A DNA stretch of 64,000 nt from Dictyostelium discoideum (lineage: Eukaryota). The position numbers and the translations under genes are program-made. Each line of letters opens with the position of its first letter. Positions within the stretch are counted from its first letter, which is position 1. This document shows, piece after piece, positions 40,591 through 52,633 of the stretch. The stretch covers positions 5,024,001 through 5,088,000 of the forward strand of contig CM000152.2 of the NCBI GenBank assembly GCA_000004695.1, read 5' to 3'. The notes under the pieces are model-generated. The model saw nothing but the letters and a program-made list of their open reading frames with translations, was not told where the DNA came from and ran no database searches.

Positions 40591-40869
40591 GGAAGAATGA
40601 TTAATTACAAAACATTTTTTTTGTTTTGTTTTTTTTTTTTTTGAAATGGATAACGTCTCCTTGTGATGCAAGATCTCATTTTTTTAATTACAAAACTTTT
40701 TTTTTTTTAATCGTACAACGCAATTATTTTTATTACAAAACTTTTTTTTTTGAATTGGATAACCCAATTAATTTAAATTTTAATTACAAACTTATTTTGG
40801 ATTGGATAACGCAATTATTAGTTATGGTTTTTTATTTTTTTTTTTTGTTGCTCCTTGACTTTAATTACA

Positions 40870-40904
<35 letters not shown>

Positions 40905-41477
40905 AATTGGATAACGCAATTATTAGTTGCTTCTCCTTGAGATGCTAGATCTCATTTTATTTGTAGTTTTTTACAGGGTCTCTAAAAGAGGGGTTAGTTT
41001 ACTTTTTTTTTTTTTTTTTTTTTTTTTATTTTAATTACAAAACTTTTTTTTTGAATTGGATAACGCAATTATTATTTGCTTCTCCTTGAGATGCTAGATC
41101 TCATTTTATTTTATTTTTTTTTTTTTTTTTTACAGGGTCTCTAAAAGAGGGGTTAGTTTACTTTTTTTTTTTTTTTTTTTTTTTGTTTCGAATTTTGAAT
41201 TGTATTATTACTTTTGATTAAAACATCTTTTTTGTCCAAACTTTTTTCTAAATCTTTTTTTATTTTATCGTCTGGTTCGTGATTGATGTTTATGACGTAT
41301 TTGAATTGTTTTTTTTTTAATTGAGTTTTATCCACAATTTCGCTTATTTTTTGTAGGCATTTGTGTTGCTTAATATTTGTGGTGTTGTTTGTGATTTTCA
41401 TTTTATTTTCTTTCTATTTTTTATATTTTTCTTTAAAAAGTTAAAAATCTGGAAATTTTCTGATTAACTTGGGTTCC

Positions 41478-41536
<59 letters not shown>

Positions 41537-44500
41537 TTATTTATAGAAAGTACTGAGTGAATTATTGTATTTTTTGAGATGTTTAGGAAGTTCTATTGCG
41601 TGAAGAGGTGAGTTCCATTGTCTGCTAAATTGTAATAGCTTTAGCGAGATTAGTGAGTCTAATTTATTTTGTTCTTCTGGCCGTTGCTTTGATTTGATTC
41701 TTAATGTTTTGTTTATAACCGCTTGTGTCCTGTCCCATGCAGCTCTTTGTGTTTTAATTAGTTCACGTATGACTTGTTGTCTGTGAATTATTATTTCTTT
41801 TTCATCGTGAATGAGTTTATTTCTTTTGTGCCAGATTTTATCGAATATAATAGCTATTAAATTGGCTACTAGTGCAATTTGTAGATGGTTTAAAATCTTC
41901 ACATTCCAGGTGTGAGTGGTGTGTCCACACTTAGTTAGGGTGTAGTTGAAGATTTCTTGTGTGTTTTTGATGTGGGCTTTGCAGTTGAAGAATATATGTT
42001 CTGAGGTCTCATCTTCCCCACACTGTTGGCATGGCATGTTGTATATTTTTGGTAGTGCTTTCAGTGTGTATCTCCATAATAGATCTCTACCTTTCATGTT
42101 TATTATTTTTTTGATTTCTTTAAATGGAAGGTGTTTGCTATTAATTTTGGTCATTATTTCTTTTTGGCCAGGAGTTGGTATGAATTTGTTGTGTTCAGGA
42201 GATTGAGTTGTCATCATATCTTCGTATATTTTTTTTAATTTTGGGAGGTGTTCGTAGTGTGTTTGTTTATTTTGTGGAGTTTTTAATTGGGTCCATGCTT
42301 GCTTGCATTGCCAGTGTAGTTGTAGTTGATTTTGTTTTGTTGTTGTTTTGTTGTTGTTGTTGTTTTTGAGTTCCTCTTCCCACAGTTTTATATATGAACT
42401 AGGAGTGTTACTTACTCTTTGGTGGAGGTATCTTTCGAATAACCATGCTTTCTGTGCTAGTTCTCTTGTCTTCAGGTTCCATAAGTTTAGGCCACCATTG
42501 ATATAGTTGTTTTGTCTTCTTTGTAGTGAAAGAGAGTTTTTAGATTTTGTGTTGAAAACGAATTTTACGATGTTATTTTCAATACTATTGTGTTGTGGTG
42601 TGGTGTTGATGTAAGTGTGGAACGTTAACTGAGATAGTGCATATGTTTTTGCCATTATGAGTCTGCCCATATAGGTTGATGAAGTTGAGTTCCATGTTAC
42701 TAGTTTAGCTCTGATGTTGTCTGAGATTGTATTGATTTTGGATTTGATACCCTTATTGTTGAAGTCAAAGCCGAGGTACCTTTCGTTTGATTTTATGACG
42801 GTGTATAGCGTTCTGGTGTTCCATTTGAAAGTGATACACGAGCATTTGGTTTGGTTTATTTTTGCGCTGGTTGCTTGGCAAAACTTCTTGATCCATTCAT
42901 TCATGAGGAAATGGTCCATAAAGTTGTATGCTATTGTTGCTGTATCATCGGCGAACTGTAGTATTTTAATGGTTTCTTTGGTTACACCATTGATGCAGCG
43001 GTCATTTATTATAGTAGTTGCCATGCATTCAACCACTAATGCGAAGATAGTGGGAGAGATAGGATCACCTTGTTTGGTTCCTCTTTTTGATGTAAAGCTT
43101 TTAGATAATGAGTTATTGATGTACACTGATGTTTCTGATTCATTGAGTAAGTTCATTATTGTGAGGACCATTTTGAGTGGTAGTTTTAGATGTGCAAGAG
43201 TACGTAGAATGGCGTTATGTGAGATTGAATCGAATGCTTTTTCAAAATCATAAAATGTTATGATTGGTTCCATATCCTCTTTTGTGTTAATCTCTCGTTT
43301 TATTATTTCTATTGTTGAGTTTAAGGTGATGATGTTATCGTGCAGTAGTCTTCTTGGTACGAATCCAGTTTGGAATGGTGAGATTATTTTGTTTAAGAAC
43401 TTCAGGATCCTATTGTTGATTATTTTCGAATAGATTTTGTAATCGACATTTAGAAGTGTTATTGGTCTATAATTATCCAGGTTGTTTGGGTCTCCTTTGT
43501 TTTTATATATAGTAATCAATATCCCTTGTTTGAAGTCCTTTGGGATTGTTGTGTTCCAGAAGTGATTGTATAGTTTTGATATTATTGGTAGAATTTCATT
43601 AATGTGGTTTTTGTAAAATGTTGGAAGGAGTCCATCTTTACCAGGTGCTTTTCCTTCTTGTATTTTTTCAATGCCTAGTCTGATTTCATATCCTTCTATT
43701 GGTTGATTAATTTCGTCCAATATCTTTTGATCAATCCTTTTATTGAATGTTTTTAGGAGTTCGTGGTGAGTGTCTTCGTTGCATTCTCTCTTCTGGTACA
43801 GGTTCTCGTAATATCTTCTTGCTACTTCGAGGATATCCTCGTGTTTTGTTACCAAACAATTGTTGCTTGGATCTAGAATTTGAGGGATTTCATTTGTCTT
43901 TCTTTGGACTTTTAACCTTCTGGTTAAGTATTTTGATGGTGTTTCTTTGTTGTTGATGTGGGTGTTGGTTTGGTTTGCTTGTTTTATTCTTACTTGTTCC
44001 TTTAGAATATTGTTGATCTCTTCTTTAAGGAAGATTGCTCTTGAATCTTTGGCTGTTTCGAGTTTTTCTGCGAGTTCTTTTAGTTTGTTTTTGGTTTTAT
44101 TGCTTTCTCTAATTTCTATATTAATTGACAGTTTCTTTATTTCATCTTTTAGTTTCAACCATTGTTCGCAAATGTTTAATTTGTACCATTTGCTGGTGTT
44201 CTCTTCGAATTTTTTATTGTAGTATTTAATTGTTTTATTAATTTTGAGGCTGGTTGAATTCATTTTGAGAGTTTCTAGGTTTTGTCTCCATAGTCTTTCT
44301 CCTTTCTTTTGTTGCTCGTATTCTGGTATTTTTAATTCAATGATTACCATGTTGTGATCAGATTTTAATTTGATTTCCTTAGTAGTAACTATTGGGTTTA
44401 GATGGAGTATCTTCTTTGAGACAAAGACCCTATCGATGGTTGATTTGTTTCTTGGAAATGTGATTCCATTCTTAATTTCTGTAAATTCGAATTCGTCGAA

Positions 44501-44758
44501 GATTGTTTTAATATATTTGTTAAGGTTATTATCCACTGAACAGTCTACATTGAAGTCTCCGGTTATAATATCGCTGTGTAGTATTTCTTCTGTGAGATTT
44601 TCCTTATACCATTCATGTCTTTCGTTTGACTTTGCTGGGGCATAAATGGTTGTGCATTTGATCTGTGTTTTTGCAATCATCCATTCGGAAGATATAATTC
44701 TTTCGTTTATTGTTTTTGTTGTTGTTTTTATTTGGGTGTTGATGATGATTTGTGACAC
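41537..44758 (-). CDS. TRE5-A ORF2: apurinic-type endonuclease C-terminal motifs, reverse transcriptase and a C-terminal Cys-rich zinc-finger-like domain. At least 1073 aa; the frame is open upstream of the first Met.
   Basis: Endonuclease motifs include …DIITGDFNVDCSVDNNLN… and SDHNMV. Reverse transcriptase motifs include …PITLLNVDYKIYSKIINNRI…, …FQTGFVPRRLLHDNI… and FADDTATIA, which is a YxDD-type box. The C-terminus has CQQCGEDETSEHIFFNCKAH…CGHTTHTW. ORF2 is frame-shifted relative to ORF1, with 44973-44758 not a multiple of 3. Confidence 0.85.
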   Translation of the reverse strand: MSQIIINTQIKTTTKTINERIISSEWMIAKTQIKCTTIYAPAKSNERHEWYKENLTEEILHSDIITGDFNVDCSVDNNLNKYIKTIFDEFEFTEIKNGITFPRNKSTIDRVFVSKKILHLNPIVTTKEIKLKSDHNMVIIELKIPEYEQQKKGERLWRQNLETLKMNSTSLKINKTIKYYNKKFEENTSKWYKLNICEQWLKLKDEIKKLSINIEIRESNKTKNKLKELAEKLETAKDSRAIFLKEEINNILKEQVRIKQANQTNTHINNKETPSKYLTRRLKVQRKTNEIPQILDPSNNCLVTKHEDILEVARRYYENLYQKRECNEDTHHELLKTFNKRIDQKILDEINQPIEGYEIRLGIEKIQEGKAPGKDGLLPTFYKNHINEILPIISKLYNHFWNTTIPKDFKQGILITIYKNKGDPNNLDNYRPITLLNVDYKIYSKIINNRILKFLNKIISPFQTGFVPRRLLHDNIITLNSTIEIIKREINTKEDMEPIITFYDFEKAFDSISHNAILRTLAHLKLPLKMVLTIMNLLNESETSVYINNSLSKSFTSKRGTKQGDPISPTIFALVVECMATTIINDRCINGVTKETIKILQFADDTATIAYNFMDHFLMNEWIKKFCQATSAKINQTKCSCITFKWNTRTLYTVIKSNERYLGFDFNNKGIKSKINTISDNIRAKLVTWNSTSSTYMGRLIMAKTYALSQLTFHTYINTTPQHNSIENNIVKFVFNTKSKNSLSLQRRQNNYINGGLNLWNLKTRELAQKAWLFERYLHQRVSNTPSSYIKLWEEELKNNNNNKTTTKQNQLQLHWQCKQAWTQLKTPQNKQTHYEHLPKLKKIYEDMMTTQSPEHNKFIPTPGQKEIMTKINSKHLPFKEIKKIINMKGRDLLWRYTLKALPKIYNMPCQQCGEDETSEHIFFNCKAHIKNTQEIFNYTLTKCGHTTHTWNVKILNHLQIALVANLIAIIFDKIWHKRNKLIHDEKEIIIHRQQVIRELIKTQRAAWDRTQAVINKTLRIKSKQRPEEQNKLDSLISLKLLQFSRQWNSPLHAIELPKHLKKYNNSLSTFYK

Positions 44759-44970
44759 CCCTTGTCCTGTTTTATCAATTGGTGCGTGGTGTGTTATTTT
44801 GTTTTTATATTGTTGATTTATTGAGTAAATTTTATTTGTTTTTATATTTGTTTCAGTTAGAAGTGCTGCGTCCAGCTTGTTGTTGTCTAATACGGTGTTT
44901 ATTATGCTGGCAGATTGGATGGTGTTGGATCCTTGGACGTTCCAAACACCTATTCTTATTGTGTTTTTCT

Positions 44971-46305
44971 TTATAGTTTTATTTGGGGTAGATTTTTATC
45001 TACCTTTTGAAGTTTCTGGTTTATTTTGTCTTCTAACTGATCTTTACTTTGTTCGTTGTGTTGTTGGTCTTGTGTGTTTGTGGGGTTTTTTGATTTACTG
45101 ATTTGTTTTAGAATTTCCTTGTTGAAGTTGTCTATATCTTCATCCATTTTTGTTTTTATGCTTTTTTGTCCATATTCACCCAATTTTGGTTTGACTGGTG
45201 TTTTGTTGGTCCTGTTTGTTTTGTCTTGTTGTTTGTTTTTTGGTGTGTTTAACAATTTACTTGGTGAATCGATAATTTTCGATGGTGTACCATAGGTTGG
45301 GCTGAAACTCATGATATGTTTTATTGGAGAGGAGAAGAACCATTGATTTGAAGGGATTGAAAGTGGGAATTCTATTTTTCTTATTGCATCAGTGTTTGGG
45401 CTGGTGAAGTCGAAGATATCATTTACCTCTCTAAGTTTTTCTTCCGTTGTTAGTCTCTTTGTTTCGCCGTGTTGTTTTATTGGTGTATTGTATGGAGATG
45501 GTGGTTCAATAGGTTTTTCTGATTTTGTTTTAATTTCTTGATTTTTTATCGATTGGGTATTGATCTCATTCTCTATTCTTGTTAGTTCATCTACGTTTTC
45601 TAGTGATGCATCTATTACCTTTTGAGCTGTATCATCTAGGGCCATAAATGTTTTATCATTAGATGAGGAGGTGATTGGTGGGATAATGATTGTTCTTTTT
45701 CCTTGTTTTGGTATTTGTTCTGATGTAGATTTTGGTTGTTGTTCATCTGATTGTTTTTTATTTTTGTTTTCTTCTTGATTTTCTGGTAATGAGGTTTGAT
45801 CTCTCCATCCTTTGTTGGAGTGACCAATTAATGTTAGATTGTCTAGTTCAATGATAGTGTCATATTCTTCTACGACTCTTTTCACTGTTTTGATAATTAG
45901 AGTTTCGCCTTTAATTTCAGATTTAATTAGTTTACATCCTTCATTTTCTATTACCCATTCTATTTCTGTGAGTGATTTATACCAATCGAAATCCGTATAC
46001 ATATTTTTTGGTCTTAGAGTGGTTATAAATTGTCCTTTTAATTCTGCATCGAACATATTTACAAAATAGATTACTGTACTAATACTGTCTGTGAGAATTT
46101 TGAATGTATTATTACTTTTGATTAAAACATCTTTTTTGTCCAAACTTTTTTCTAAATCTTTTTTTATTTTATCGTCTGGTTCGTGATTGATGTTTATGAC
46201 GTATTTGAATTGTTTTTTTTTTAATTGAGTTTTATCCACAATTTCGCTTATTTTTTGTAGGCATTTGTGTTGCTTAATATTTGTGGTGTTGTTTGTGATT
46301 TTCAT
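44971..46305 (-). CDS. TRE5-A ORF1 (444 aa).
   Basis: An intact ORF reads MKITNNTTNIKQHKCLQKISEIVDKTQLKKK…. Its first 66 codons are duplicated in the 3' B-module as ORF 41153..41401, where the copy runs into the C-module and poly(A). Confidence 0.8.
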   Translation of the reverse strand: MKITNNTTNIKQHKCLQKISEIVDKTQLKKKQFKYVININHEPDDKIKKDLEKSLDKKDVLIKSNNTFKILTDSISTVIYFVNMFDAELKGQFITTLRPKNMYTDFDWYKSLTEIEWVIENEGCKLIKSEIKGETLIIKTVKRVVEEYDTIIELDNLTLIGHSNKGWRDQTSLPENQEENKNKKQSDEQQPKSTSEQIPKQGKRTIIIPPITSSSNDKTFMALDDTAQKVIDASLENVDELTRIENEINTQSIKNQEIKTKSEKPIEPPSPYNTPIKQHGETKRLTTEEKLREVNDIFDFTSPNTDAIRKIEFPLSIPSNQWFFSSPIKHIMSFSPTYGTPSKIIDSPSKLLNTPKNKQQDKTNRTNKTPVKPKLGEYGQKSIKTKMDEDIDNFNKEILKQISKSKNPTNTQDQQHNEQSKDQLEDKINQKLQKVDKNLPQIKL

Positions 46306-46383
46306 TTTATTTTCTTTCTATTTTTTATATTTTTCTTTAAAAAGTTAAAAATCTGGAAATTTTCTGATTAACTTGGTTCCCAT

Positions 46384-46427
<44 letters not shown>

Positions 46428-46743
46428 TCTTTTTTATATGAAAAATGAAATAATCAAAAAAAGAGATTGTTGTTGTTGTTTGTTTTTTTTCGATCTGATT
46501 ATTTTTTGCTTTTTTTTGAAAATTTTGCTACGCAAAATTCTCAAAACGAAACAAATAATAAATTACAATAAAGTAAAAAGATGGCTTTTTAAGATAGTTT
46601 ATTTATTTATTTATTTGTTTTTTAAGTCTTTTTTATATGAAAAATGAAATAATCAAAAAAAGAGATTGTTGTTGTTGTTTGTTTTTTTTCGATCTCTTAA
46701 ATTACAAAACAAGCATAAAAAATGAAAATTTTTACAAATTAGA

Positions 46744-46829
46744 GCCATAGTAGTCTAGTGGTAAGACATTTCTCTCGTATAAAATTATACAGCGAAGAAG
46801 GATCCCGTGTTCGATTCACGGCTTTGGCA
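46744..46829 (+). tRNA. tRNA gene with a putative 15-nt intron. The isotype is uncertain: the anticodon loop CUCGUA|intron|A would give CGU (Thr), but the assignment is tentative.
   Basis: The acceptor stem GCCATAG/CTTTGGC has 6 of 7 pairs. T8-A9 are present. The D-arm is GTCT-AGTGGTA-AGAC. The anticodon stem TTTCT/AGAAG has 4 Watson-Crick pairs and one GU pair. About 15 nt (taaaattatacagcg, containing the palindrome TATAAAATTATA) fall at the canonical 37/38 intron position. The variable loop is GATC, the T-arm is CCGTG-TTCGATT-CACGG, the discriminator is A, and a T6 Pol III terminator follows at 46832-46837. Confidence 0.75.
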
Positions 46830-47006
46830 ACTTTTTTCCAAAAAAAGTTAAATTTATTATTTTTTTTTTTTTTTATAATTTGAAAAAACCAGTCAATACT
46901 ACTGGTTTGCTACTCACTGCCCATTAGCTTCAATATGGAGATAATGGATTCACCAGAATTTGTATTCCTTGGAAACAAGAAGCATGAGAAAAAGAGCACA
47001 TCTAAA

Positions 47007-47088
47007 TTACAGAAATTTAAAAAACCACTCAATTACCATAACGCTACTCACTGCTAATTGAATGGTTTTTTTAATTTCTGTAATTTTG
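47007..47088. other. Perfect 28 to 30-bp stem hairpin with a 23-nt loop, inside a GC-richer non-coding block (46860-47290) immediately 3' of the tRNA gene.
   Basis: The arm aattacagaaatttaaaaaaccactcaatt at 47007-47036 is the reverse complement of aattgaatggtttttttaatttctgtaatt at 47059-47088. The motif ctactcactgc recurs at 46905 and 47045. No ORF is present. Confidence 0.6.
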
Positions 47089-47586
47089 ATGTATTCTTTG
47101 TCTCTTTATTATATCTGCATTTCTTTTCCTATGGCCATAGCACATTTGCTGCAGACGAATTCGTTTCTTTTCATAAACAAGCCCAAGTCTCTTTAAATTT
47201 ACCCAATTTTACACTTTTGTCAAGAAAATCCCTATGTTCTAGATGTGGTTCTTTGTATTTCTAGCCTTCTGTTAAAAGTCCACAAAAAACAATGATAGAT
47301 TTTGAACAGGAATTCCAAATTTGTTTATTTTTTTTTTTCCCAAAATTTTATTATAATAAATAAAAATATTAAATTTTGTTATAATAAATAAGACAATTAT
47401 GTTTTTACCCTTTTTTCTATCGCTTTTATATTTGTTTTCGTCCATCCATTAATACACTTAAAAAAAAATGAAAAAAAAAAAAAATGAAAATAGCATTTAA
47501 AAAAAAAAAAAAAAAAAAATAAATAAAAAAAAAAAAAAAAAATTCATTTTTGTTTTTGAAAAAAAAAATCCAACAAAAGTGGTAGA

Positions 47587-50776: not shown

Positions 50777-51711
50777 ATGCGTGAAATTATTTCTATTCAT
50801 ATAGGTCAAGCTGGTATCCAAGGTATTTATTAAAAATATTATTCTTATTATTTATTTATTTTATTAAAAATATTATTATTTATTTATTTTATTAATAATA
50901 ATATTTTAATTTTTTTTTTTTTTTTTCATTTTTTTTTTTTTTTTTATAATTTTTTTTATAGTTGGTAATTCATGTTGGGAACTATATTGTTTGGAACATG
51001 GAATAGATAAAGATGGTACATTTAAAAAAGATTATAAAAGAGGTAATGATGTAAAATATGAAACATTTTTTAGAGAATCATCAACTAAAGATAAAGTTGT
51101 ACCACGTTCTTTATTTATTGATTTAGAACCAACAGTTATTGATGAAATTAGAAGTGGTGATTATAGGGAATTATTTCATCCAAATCAATTAATTAATGGA
51201 AAAGAAGATGCTGCAAATGTAAAAAAAAAATTAAAAAAAAAAAAAAATCACAAAAAAAAAAAATCACAAAAACCATACTTATAAATTTATTTATTTATTT
51301 ATTTATTTACTAATATTTTAATTAAAAAAAAAATAAAAAAATAAAAAAAAATATAAAGAATTATGCAAGAGGACATTATACAGTTGGTAAAGAACTTTTA
51401 GATTTATCATTACAAAGAATTAGAGAATTAACAGATGAATGTGACGGATTACAAGGATTTTTCTTATTCCATAGTGTTGGTGGAGGTTCAGGTTCAGGAT
51501 TTGGTTCATTATTATTGCAAAAATTAGCTTCAGAATATGGTAAAAAATCAAAAATTGATTTTTGTATTTATCCATCACCACAAGTTTCAACAGCTGTAGT
51601 TGAACCATATAATTGTGTACTTTCAACTCATTCTTTATTAGAACATTGTGATGTTACATTTAGTAAGTATAATTAAATATCTCTATTTTATTATTATTTT
51701 ATTAATTTTTT

Positions 51712-51745
<34 letters not shown>

Positions 51746-52633
51746 TACAGTGTTAGATAATGAAGCAATTTATGATGTTTGTAAAAAAAAATTACATATT
51801 GAACGTCCATCATATGCAAATCTTAATAGAATGATAGCACAAGTTATAAGTTCATTAACATCATCACTTCGTTTTCCAGGTCAATTAAATGTTGATATTA
51901 ATGAATTTCAAACCAATTTAGTTCCATTCCCACGTATTCATTTCCTTTTAGCATCATATGCACCATTAATTTCAATAGAGAATGCAAATCATGAACAAGT
52001 TACAGTTAGTGCAATTACAAACTCTGTATTCAGTAATGATAACCTTTTGGCTAAATGTGATCCAAGTTCTGGTAAATATATGTCTTGTTGTCTTTTATAT
52101 CGTGGTAATATGACACCAAATGAAGCTCAAACTGCTGTTGCTGATATTAAAACTCAAAAATCAAAAACTGTTAATTGTATTTATTTTTAAAATTTTTAAA
52201 AAAAAACTCTATATTTATATTTATATTATTATTTATATTTATATTATTATTTATTAATTATAAAAATTTATTTTAATATTAATTTAATATTATTTTATTT
52301 TTAATAGTTACAAGTTGGTCAAAAGGTACAGGTTTTAAATGTGGTATTAATTCATCAATACCAACAGTGGTTCCAGGTGGTGATATGGCAAATATTGAGA
52401 AAGCTGTTTGTTTACTTTCAAATACAACTTCAATTTCACAAATCTTTAATAGATTAAATAGAAAATTTTCATTAATGTTTGAAAAGAGAGCATTTGTTCA
52501 TTGGTATGTTGGTGAAGGTATGGAAGAAGGTGAATTTGCTGAAGCAAGAGATGATCTACTTGCCTTGGAAAAAGATTATGAAAGTTTAGCTGAAGACTTA
52601 GATGATGAACAAGTAGAAGAACAAGAATATTAA
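50777..52633 (+). CDS. tubA: Alpha-tubulin, a divergent Dictyostelium-type alpha. Five exons: 50777..50822, 50962..51218, 51359..51662, 51751..52176 and 52308..52633.
   Basis: Exon 1 reads [15 protein letters not shown] with a trailing g. Exon 2 reads [15 protein letters not shown]…[33 protein letters not shown]. Exon 3 reads [56 protein letters not shown]…[15 protein letters not shown]…DVTF. Exon 4 reads [42 protein letters not shown]…KTVN. Exon 5 reads [28 protein letters not shown]…[31 protein letters not shown]…EEQEY*. Donors are GTATTT, GTAAAA, GTAAGT and GTATTT. Total length is 1359 nt, or 452 aa. The symbol is inferred because Dictyostelium alpha-tubulin is known to be divergent. Confidence 0.85.

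Follow-up and report, generated by a model that had tools for sequence, protein, structure and literature searches.

The 64,000-nucleotide stretch of Dictyostelium discoideum AX4 chromosome 3 analyzed here (the window; contig CM000152.2, positions 5,024,001 to 5,088,000) contains a full-length autonomous non-long-terminal-repeat (non-LTR) retrotransposon of the TRE5-A.1 family (formerly DRE), which lies 48 bp upstream of the transfer RNA (tRNA) gene ThrCGU-1 and points away from it. We put the probability of this reading at about 90%. The element runs on the minus strand from position 46695 to position 41044 (5652 bp) and is laid out as A/B-ORF1/ORF2-B/C, where ORF1 and ORF2 are its two open reading frames; the published TRE5-A.1 numbering reaches nt ~5647 and the published layout is AB-ORF1/ORF2-BC (PMC3159450). 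Module layout, 5.65-kb length, ORF1 protein, an ORF2 with reverse transcriptase (RT) and putative APE endonuclease and zinc-finger parts, the C-module hairpin, the oligo(A) and the 48-bp position relative to the tRNA gene are all shared with TRE5-A.1, and there is no difference at the level of the family; what distinguishes this copy is two private ORF2 residues and a mismatched pair of target-site copies. TRE5-A.2, a non-autonomous derivative, has the same untranslated-region (UTR) modules and ORF1, but the window element retains the entire ORF2 and the entire C-module. No internal deletion of the TRE5-A.2 type was found, as the 5652-bp element aligns to full-length copies without gaps except in homopolymer runs.

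The tRNA target, spacer and parts of the element are, with the basis of each assignment in brackets:

46744..46829, plus strand: tRNA-Thr(CGU) gene ThrCGU-1, the integration target (ARAGORN and Rfam tRNA)
46696..46743, no strand: 48-bp spacer separating the 5' ends of tRNA and element (sequence; homology to other copies from 46695)
46497..46695, minus strand: complete A-module, 199 bp, plus-strand promoter (direct repeat family D3; collinear with seven full-length copies; function from PMC3159450)
46398..46496, minus strand: partial second A-module copy (first ~77 nt, 46496-~46420) and A-tract (repeat analysis, copy alignment)
46098..46397, minus strand: 5' B-module, which holds the ORF1 start codon at 46305 (300-nt direct repeat)
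44971..46305, minus strand: ORF1, 444 amino acids (aa) plus stop, DDB_G0281943 (list of open reading frames; exact protein match)
41537..44995, minus strand: ORF2 open frame, 1152 codons plus stop (41539-41537), the last 1047 aa of which are DDB_G0281941 (three-frame translation)
41194..41493, minus strand: 3' B-module, following ORF2 (300-nt direct repeat)
41053..41193, minus strand: C-module with predicted 3' hairpins (sequence; collinear with other copies)
41030..41052, minus strand: oligo(A)9 (41052-41044), then the distal copy of the target site, GTTTTGTAATTAAA (41043-41030) (sequence)

Modules and boundaries of the element

A prediction made earlier from the same DNA (the original prediction) had recognized the modular UTR structure, and the duplicated A-module, the flanking B-modules and the C-module with oligo(A) were all located. 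It had also taken the 5'-most A-module to be cut to ~73 bp; the 5'-most copy is in fact complete at 199 bp, and the partial copy is the internal second one. This partial internal repeat is a family-wide trait, being present in all seven of the other full-length copies aligned over the 5' end. The 5' and 3' B-modules are 97% identical over 300 nt. For the last 57 nt of the C-module a hairpin fold is predicted (-11.3 kcal/mol, z=-2.9), and 3' stem-loops of the C-module are needed for retrotransposition (PMC3159450); the C-module sequence agrees with that of other full-length copies, and its predicted hairpins are as expected from that work. The left boundary had been placed at 40620, and has to be moved to 41044 because 40602-41043 consists of older TRE5-A 3' remnants. 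The two target-site copies that flank the element have 11 nt in common and then diverge (GTTTTGTAATTTAA vs GTTTTGTAATTAAA), where target-site duplications of the family measure 10-16 bp (PMC9012585). This mismatch is explained if, as set out below, the 3' end comes from an earlier, truncated insertion.

The tRNA target gene

ThrCGU-1 is 86 nt long and contains an intron of ~14 nt after the anticodon, in agreement with the intron-containing tRNA gene of the original prediction (tRNA-Thr(CGT), 46744-46829, plus strand, with an anticodon-loop insertion). It scores 49 bits against the Rfam tRNA model (gathering score 29), with 17 nt at a point of the anticodon loop for which the consensus has 2. 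The gene is entered at chr3 5070744-5070829 in S2 Table of PMC5391098, where it is the single ThrCGU entry found, and the ThrCGU primer published there agrees with the window sequence across the tRNA intron. The same study recovered de novo tagged TRE5-A(bsr) insertions at ThrCGU-1 in three libraries (27, 15 and 45 contigs).

The element and ThrCGU-1 are divergent, with the element 5' end facing the tRNA 5' end, so that the predicted head-to-head orientation holds. Since homology to other copies begins at 46695 and the tRNA begins at 46744, the spacer measures 48 bp (46696-46743) and not 51 bp as first counted, which falls within the published TRE5-A integration window of 47±3 bp upstream of tRNA genes (PMC5391098). 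The rule previously invoked had been about 50±3 bp. Inside the spacer lies the tRNA-proximal target-site copy GTTTTGTAATTTAA (46710-46697, minus-strand reading), followed by an extra G at 46696. The region is strongly A+T-rich, and its G+C content is raised at 42-46 kb.

ORF1 and ORF2 are uninterrupted

ORF1 (46305..44971, minus strand) encodes 444 aa without interruption, as had been predicted, and its protein is an exact match to AX4 DDB_G0281943 (EAL66531.2). It gave no Pfam match, in agreement with the published statement that the ORF1 of TRE5-A is unlike any other ORF1 protein (PMC5391098). ORF2 had been predicted to be uninterrupted over at least 1073 aa; its open frame comprises 1152 codons (44995..41540) with zero internal stops, and the 1073-aa version listed earlier begins at a GTG. 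Three-frame translation of 45020-44700 places the opening of the frame at 44995, right after the stop at 44998-44996. The frame relation, which had been marked for checking, is -1 for ORF2 relative to ORF1, with an overlap with ORF1 coding sequence of 22 nt, or 25 nt including the stop codon. Neither frameshifts nor stops appeared in either ORF on alignment.

The 1047-aa ATG-initiated part of ORF2 is an exact match to AX4 DDB_G0281941 (EAL66530.1). No ATG occurs in the ORF2 frame upstream of codon 106. The gene model DDB_G0281941 starts at this first ATG and omits 105 open upstream codons (window 44681-44995) that carry the endonuclease motifs WNVQG and LLTETN. Codons 40-105 are coding, because they are 63% identical to a D. 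citrinum relative, and the annotated 1047-aa product would be devoid of the N-terminal endonuclease motifs. As no ATG precedes these motifs, we infer that ORF2 is translated by a -1 shift from ORF1 or from a non-AUG or other non-canonical start; no canonical X_XXY_YYZ slippery heptamer was seen by eye in the ORF1/ORF2 overlap. A related element in D. citrinum is annotated with one protein (P0003, 1560 aa) that combines an ORF1-like N-terminus (32% identity over 221 aa) with an ORF2-like body (59%); this may be a true in-frame fusion, or the gene model may have placed an intron across a frameshift.

The RT domain of ORF2 is clear: Pfam RVT_1 matches aa 502-743 (E=3e-33, 115.6 bits, cut-off 29.6), and the FADD box is present as QFADD. 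Furthermore, aa 184-843 align to structures of human L1 ORF2p (8uw3, 8sxt, 8c8j; E=1.7e-46), beginning in the C-terminal part of the endonuclease. The translation contains the APE-type motifs WNVQG, LLTETN, IYAPA, GDFN, IDRVF and SDHN (aa ~14-235), of which IDRVF and SDHN align to the L1 endonuclease, and a CCHC-type motif CQQCGEDETSEHIFFNC (C-x2-C-x7-H-x4-C) at aa ~989-1005. TRE5-A resembles human LINE-1 in having an APE-type endonuclease, putative in this copy, followed by RT, in target-primed reverse transcription, and in 5' truncation and target-site duplications. In contrast to LINE-1, TRE5-A has an ORF1 that shows no relationship to L1 ORF1p (Pfam gave no match; PMC5391098), integration is aimed at RNA polymerase III genes via TFIIIB, and a structured C-module is required rather than poly(A) alone.

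Comparison with other full-length copies

Other copies of the element were examined at ten loci of a second D. discoideum assembly, GCA_054883475.1, and seven full-length copies were aligned. The exact ORF1 protein is encoded at at least 10 places in this assembly, with a 1047-aa ORF2 next to every one. End to end, the window element is 99.4-99.7% identical to the seven full-length copies, with indels confined to homopolymer runs. Apart from these indels, the window copy carries four private substitutions, one in the 5' UTR (46383A) and three in ORF2, the latter being N385H, E435G and one synonymous change relative to the consensus of the seven. The ORF2 variants are 43843C, 43692G and 42221A. 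N385H and E435G sit in the linker between the endonuclease and RT domains. The alignment and substitution count proposed earlier as a check therefore yield an ORF1 protein identical to that of at least 10 copies and an ORF2 two residues off the consensus. Read in the orientation of the element, eight of the ten loci have a minus-strand tRNA gene upstream of it, and the remaining two, which have none, are inside a tandem array. Target-site duplications of 16-18 bp were found at three of the ten.

On this evidence the window copy appears to be a structurally intact TRE5-A.1 and a candidate for retrotransposition competence. The original prediction of an intact candidate in place of the usual truncated remnant stands, with the caveat that at least 10 equally intact copies exist per genome. 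It is unlikely, though worth weighing, that the copy is structurally intact and yet no source element, being disabled by N385H/E435G or silenced while other copies give the activity. Both residues are private to the AX4 reference, with the consensus N and E kept in the wild-strain relatives P0001 and P0002, and an AgnC-dependent control of TRE5-A has been published (PMC4559204, PMC5633606). Yet both changes fall outside the catalytic motifs, in a poorly conserved linker, and ORF1, A-module and C-module agree with the other full-length copies apart from homopolymer-run lengths.

The tandem array (L006-L008; CM142511.1 of the second assembly, ~3.02-3.04 Mb) is arranged head-to-tail with a 4.89-kb period as A-[B-ORF1-ORF2]n-B-C, so that neighboring units have a B-module in common, 3' for the one and 5' for the other. 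This arrangement suggests that the array arose by unequal recombination between B-modules and not by separate insertions.

A stack of older TRE5-A tails behind the full-length element

Beyond the distal target-site copy, the minus strand holds a series of further TRE5-A 3' ends, as judged from sequence and repeat analysis:

40602..41029, minus strand: five older 5'-truncated TRE5-A 3' ends, U2-U6
41028-40874, minus strand: U2, complete C-module
40861-40792, minus strand: U3, shorter and more degenerate C-module 3' end
40780-40742, minus strand: U4, shorter and more degenerate C-module 3' end
40729-40697, minus strand: U5, shorter and more degenerate C-module 3' end
40684-40614, minus strand: U6, shorter and more degenerate C-module 3' end

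Each of U2-U6 is followed by oligo(A) and then by its own copy of GTTT(T)GTAAT(T)AA. Moving outward from the tRNA gene, the full-length copy comes first and then the five tails, progressively shorter and more degenerate. As read from this order, the stack is the outcome of repeated hits on one site, in which newcomers insert on the tRNA side and push older copies outward. The full-length copy next to the tRNA gene is accordingly the youngest, because each newcomer duplicates the site and displaces earlier arrivals outward. TRE-TRE tandems at tRNA genes have been described (PMC5391098), and the stack is an extended example of them, with 6 units in the window and 8 in the other assembly; only the stack depth and the adjoining tRNA-half fragments (see below) differ.

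The window element is probably a composite of two insertions

Locus L002 of GCA_054883475.1 is the same chromosomal site as the window locus, with 0 mismatches over 7633 bp of flanking sequence and differences in homopolymer length only. Where the window has one element, L002 has three (E1, E2 and E3), followed by the same U2-U6 tails. E1 is a full TRE5-A.1, its ORF1 having 444 aa and its ORF2 1152 codons; it is followed by A26 and a target-site copy, and it is flanked on both sides by identical GTTTTGTAATTTAA, a perfect 14-bp target-site duplication. E2 is a TRE5-A.2 with the ORF2 deletion and a 72-bp BC deletion that leaves ~87 bp of the C-module, as in PMC3159450. E3 is a TRE5-A.1 truncated to its last 957 bp, which starts at the equivalent of window position 42022. 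The extra E2 and E3 span L002 13248-16800, at the place of window 41044, where they separate the full-length element from what is the second C-module of the window; the AX4 reference is ~3.5 kb shorter here.

The two ends of the window element correspond to different members of this array. Its proximal target-site copy is that of E1 (GTTTTGTAATTTAA), while its distal junction, A9 + GTTTTGTAATTAAAAT + A25 + C-module, is the E3 junction letter-for-letter. Among diagnostic sites, 41928 is E3-like, 41599 is E1-like and the tail is E3-like, and all 5 mismatches between window and L002 are within the element. Thus, the window element is probably a composite, either recombinant or from a collapsed assembly, of an E1 body and an E3 tail: a single deletion between the direct repeats of E1 and E3 turns the L002 structure into that of the window, and the reverse path needs an insertion within ORF2, where no tRNA target is near. 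Comparing the two sequences, we infer that E1-E2-E3 plus the older tails is the historical product at the ThrCGU-1 locus. An intact TRE5-A.1 abuts ThrCGU-1 whichever structure holds, because E1 in L002 also has the 444-aa ORF1 and the 1152-codon ORF2.

How the composite arose can be accounted for in two ways. The AX4 genome may itself carry E1, E2 and E3, with the Sanger-era assembly having merged E1 and E3 via their shared 957 bp and lost E2, an account to which we give nearly even odds. The flanks are identical between the assemblies while five of five mismatches fall inside the element, and a mosaic of diagnostic sites is what is expected of a consensus built from reads of several copies. 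Furthermore, none of the eight copies examined in the other assembly has the substitutions private to the window, which at the protein level do recur in another AX4 reference gene, DDB_G0273345. A point on the other side is that GCA_054883475.1 may represent a different strain to which E1 and E2 have been added. Alternatively, homologous recombination across the 3' ~1 kb common to E1 and E3 deleted E2 in the AX4 lineage and left an intact chimera, which is a serious possibility though one we hold at under even odds. It accounts for the E1 body and the E3 tail; the ~1-kb direct repeats, >99% identical and 3.5 kb apart, would be good substrates for recombination; and recombination between TRE5-A modules seems to occur elsewhere, as in the B-module-joined array L006-L008. 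The mosaic, however, requires more than one exchange or gene conversion under this account. Together, the mosaic sites and the confinement of mismatches to the element lean slightly toward assembly collapse.

That the window instead shows a primary single integration product, and that the extra elements of the other assembly came later, is highly improbable. TRE5-A is active in laboratory strains and ThrCGU-1 took new tagged insertions experimentally (PMC5391098), but new insertions land ~47 bp from the tRNA gene, proximal to a resident copy, whereas E2 and E3 lie on the far side of the full-length copy. In addition, an insertion inside ORF2 at 42022 would be needed, where there is no tRNA target, and the target-site copies in the window differ (GTTTTGTAATTTAA vs GTTTTGTAATTAAA) whereas those of E1 form a perfect pair.

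Several points weigh against the whole account of the window copy, as an autonomous TRE5-A.1 and as a composite. The Exo_endo_phos match to the ORF2 endonuclease is weak (20.4 bits, E=4.7e-4; cut-off 24.5 bits), and so is the zf-RVT match to the zinc finger (E=0.026, under the Pfam threshold); of the ORF2 domains originally predicted, RT with its FADD box is thus strongly recovered through RVT_1, while endonuclease and zinc finger are visible as motifs with profiles below the Pfam thresholds. N385H and E435G may have an effect on ORF2. The mosaic of diagnostic sites (41928, 41599, tail) is unexplained by a single clean crossover, and the contrast with GCA_054883475.1 may reflect a real strain difference or an assembly artefact.

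tRNA-half fragments beyond the stack

Two partial tRNA genes adjoin the outer end of the stack:

40450..40601, plus strand: two degenerate tRNA-Thr gene 5' fragments, b and c (repeat families D6, D7; similarity search)

Fragment b (40512-40601) comprises 30 nt of 5' flank and tRNA nt 1 to ~60 including the intron (92-94% identical, with 94% over 83 nt, E=2e-31), and fragment c (40450-40495) comprises 46 nt (87% identical, E=5e-7). Both are without the B box, and each is directly followed by TTAATTAC, the left part of the target site duplicated by every TRE5-A insertion here. In composition, both resemble tandemly duplicated units in which the target site is joined to the flank and one half of the tRNA gene. 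One explanation, to which we assign a low probability, is that they are footprints of abortive integration, in which endonuclease nicks ~100 bp apart, one at the usual site and the other near tRNA position +60, were filled in and no element was inserted. A possible alternative origin is slippage or unequal exchange. A search with every tRNA gene at the other TRE5-A loci found no similar tRNA fragments around the tRNA genes there. A general tRNA-fragment signature of TRE5-A integration was therefore rejected, the other loci showing only the ordinary 16-18-bp duplications, at three loci.

A model for insertion at ThrCGU-1

The following steps are taken from published work on the family (PMC3159450, PMC5391098, PMC9012585, PMC5633606) and not from this copy. 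The A-module promoter would produce plus-strand RNA, and the ORF1 protein would contact or bind TFIIIB on the tRNA gene. The ORF2 protein, with its APE endonuclease, RT and zinc finger, would nick the DNA ~47 bp upstream of the tRNA gene, and RT would prime from the nick and begin to copy the RNA at the C-module/oligo(A) end, in target-primed reverse transcription. A staggered second nick would create the 10-16-bp target-site duplication. Serial integration at a fixed distance from ThrCGU-1 would then leave stacked tails, with a separate oligo(A) and target-site copy behind each. At this locus, the E1-E2-E3 array would have been reduced to an E1 body and an E3 tail through a homologous deletion in the cell or through assembly collapse.

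Flanking features

An imperfect palindrome lies at window 46986-47104, 157 bp downstream of the tRNA gene, with arms of 53 nt that are 87% complementary and a 13-nt loop. Its predicted RNA fold has -55.9 kcal/mol (z=-10.6) for the minus strand and -47.6 kcal/mol for the plus strand. Its Rfam matches are to generic microRNA (miRNA) precursors and are all sub-threshold. The second assembly has the identical palindrome, and no further copy occurs within the window or at the 10 other loci. The palindrome may be a source of hairpin RNA or small RNA, or a foldback relic. A TRE3 remnant downstream of the tRNA gene was ruled out, the region having no repeats in the other loci. Two neighboring genes are unrelated to the element: a 374-aa gene at 47587-~48960 with many poly-N and EK repeats, and an alpha-tubulin-like multi-exon gene at 50990-52633, ~4 kb from the tRNA gene. 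A homologue search with the neighboring low-complexity gene gave no match, and one with a tubulin exon gave only short alpha-tubulins that are unrelated.

Significance

The element is ordinary and already known, being present in the AX4 annotation as DDB_G0281943 and DDB_G0281941. TRE5-A.1, its module structure, its targeting of tRNA genes and the formation of tandems have all been published, and intact TRE5-A.1 copies are common, with at least 10 equally intact ones per genome. What is added to the earlier reading is the corrected boundaries and spacing, the interpretation of the 3' stack as serial insertion, and a caution that what the AX4 reference shows as an individual TRE5-A copy may be a composite, as the second assembly resolves three elements here where the reference has one. 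Because reference copies may be composites, claims about the intactness of a copy, about source elements and about copy number need the support of long reads. If true, the abortive-integration footprint would mean that tRNA-targeted retrotransposition has a by-product not described before, at the only ThrCGU gene found in S2 Table of PMC5391098. Altogether, the locus cleanly illustrates serial integration at a single tRNA gene, the nested target-site copies allowing the order of events to be read.

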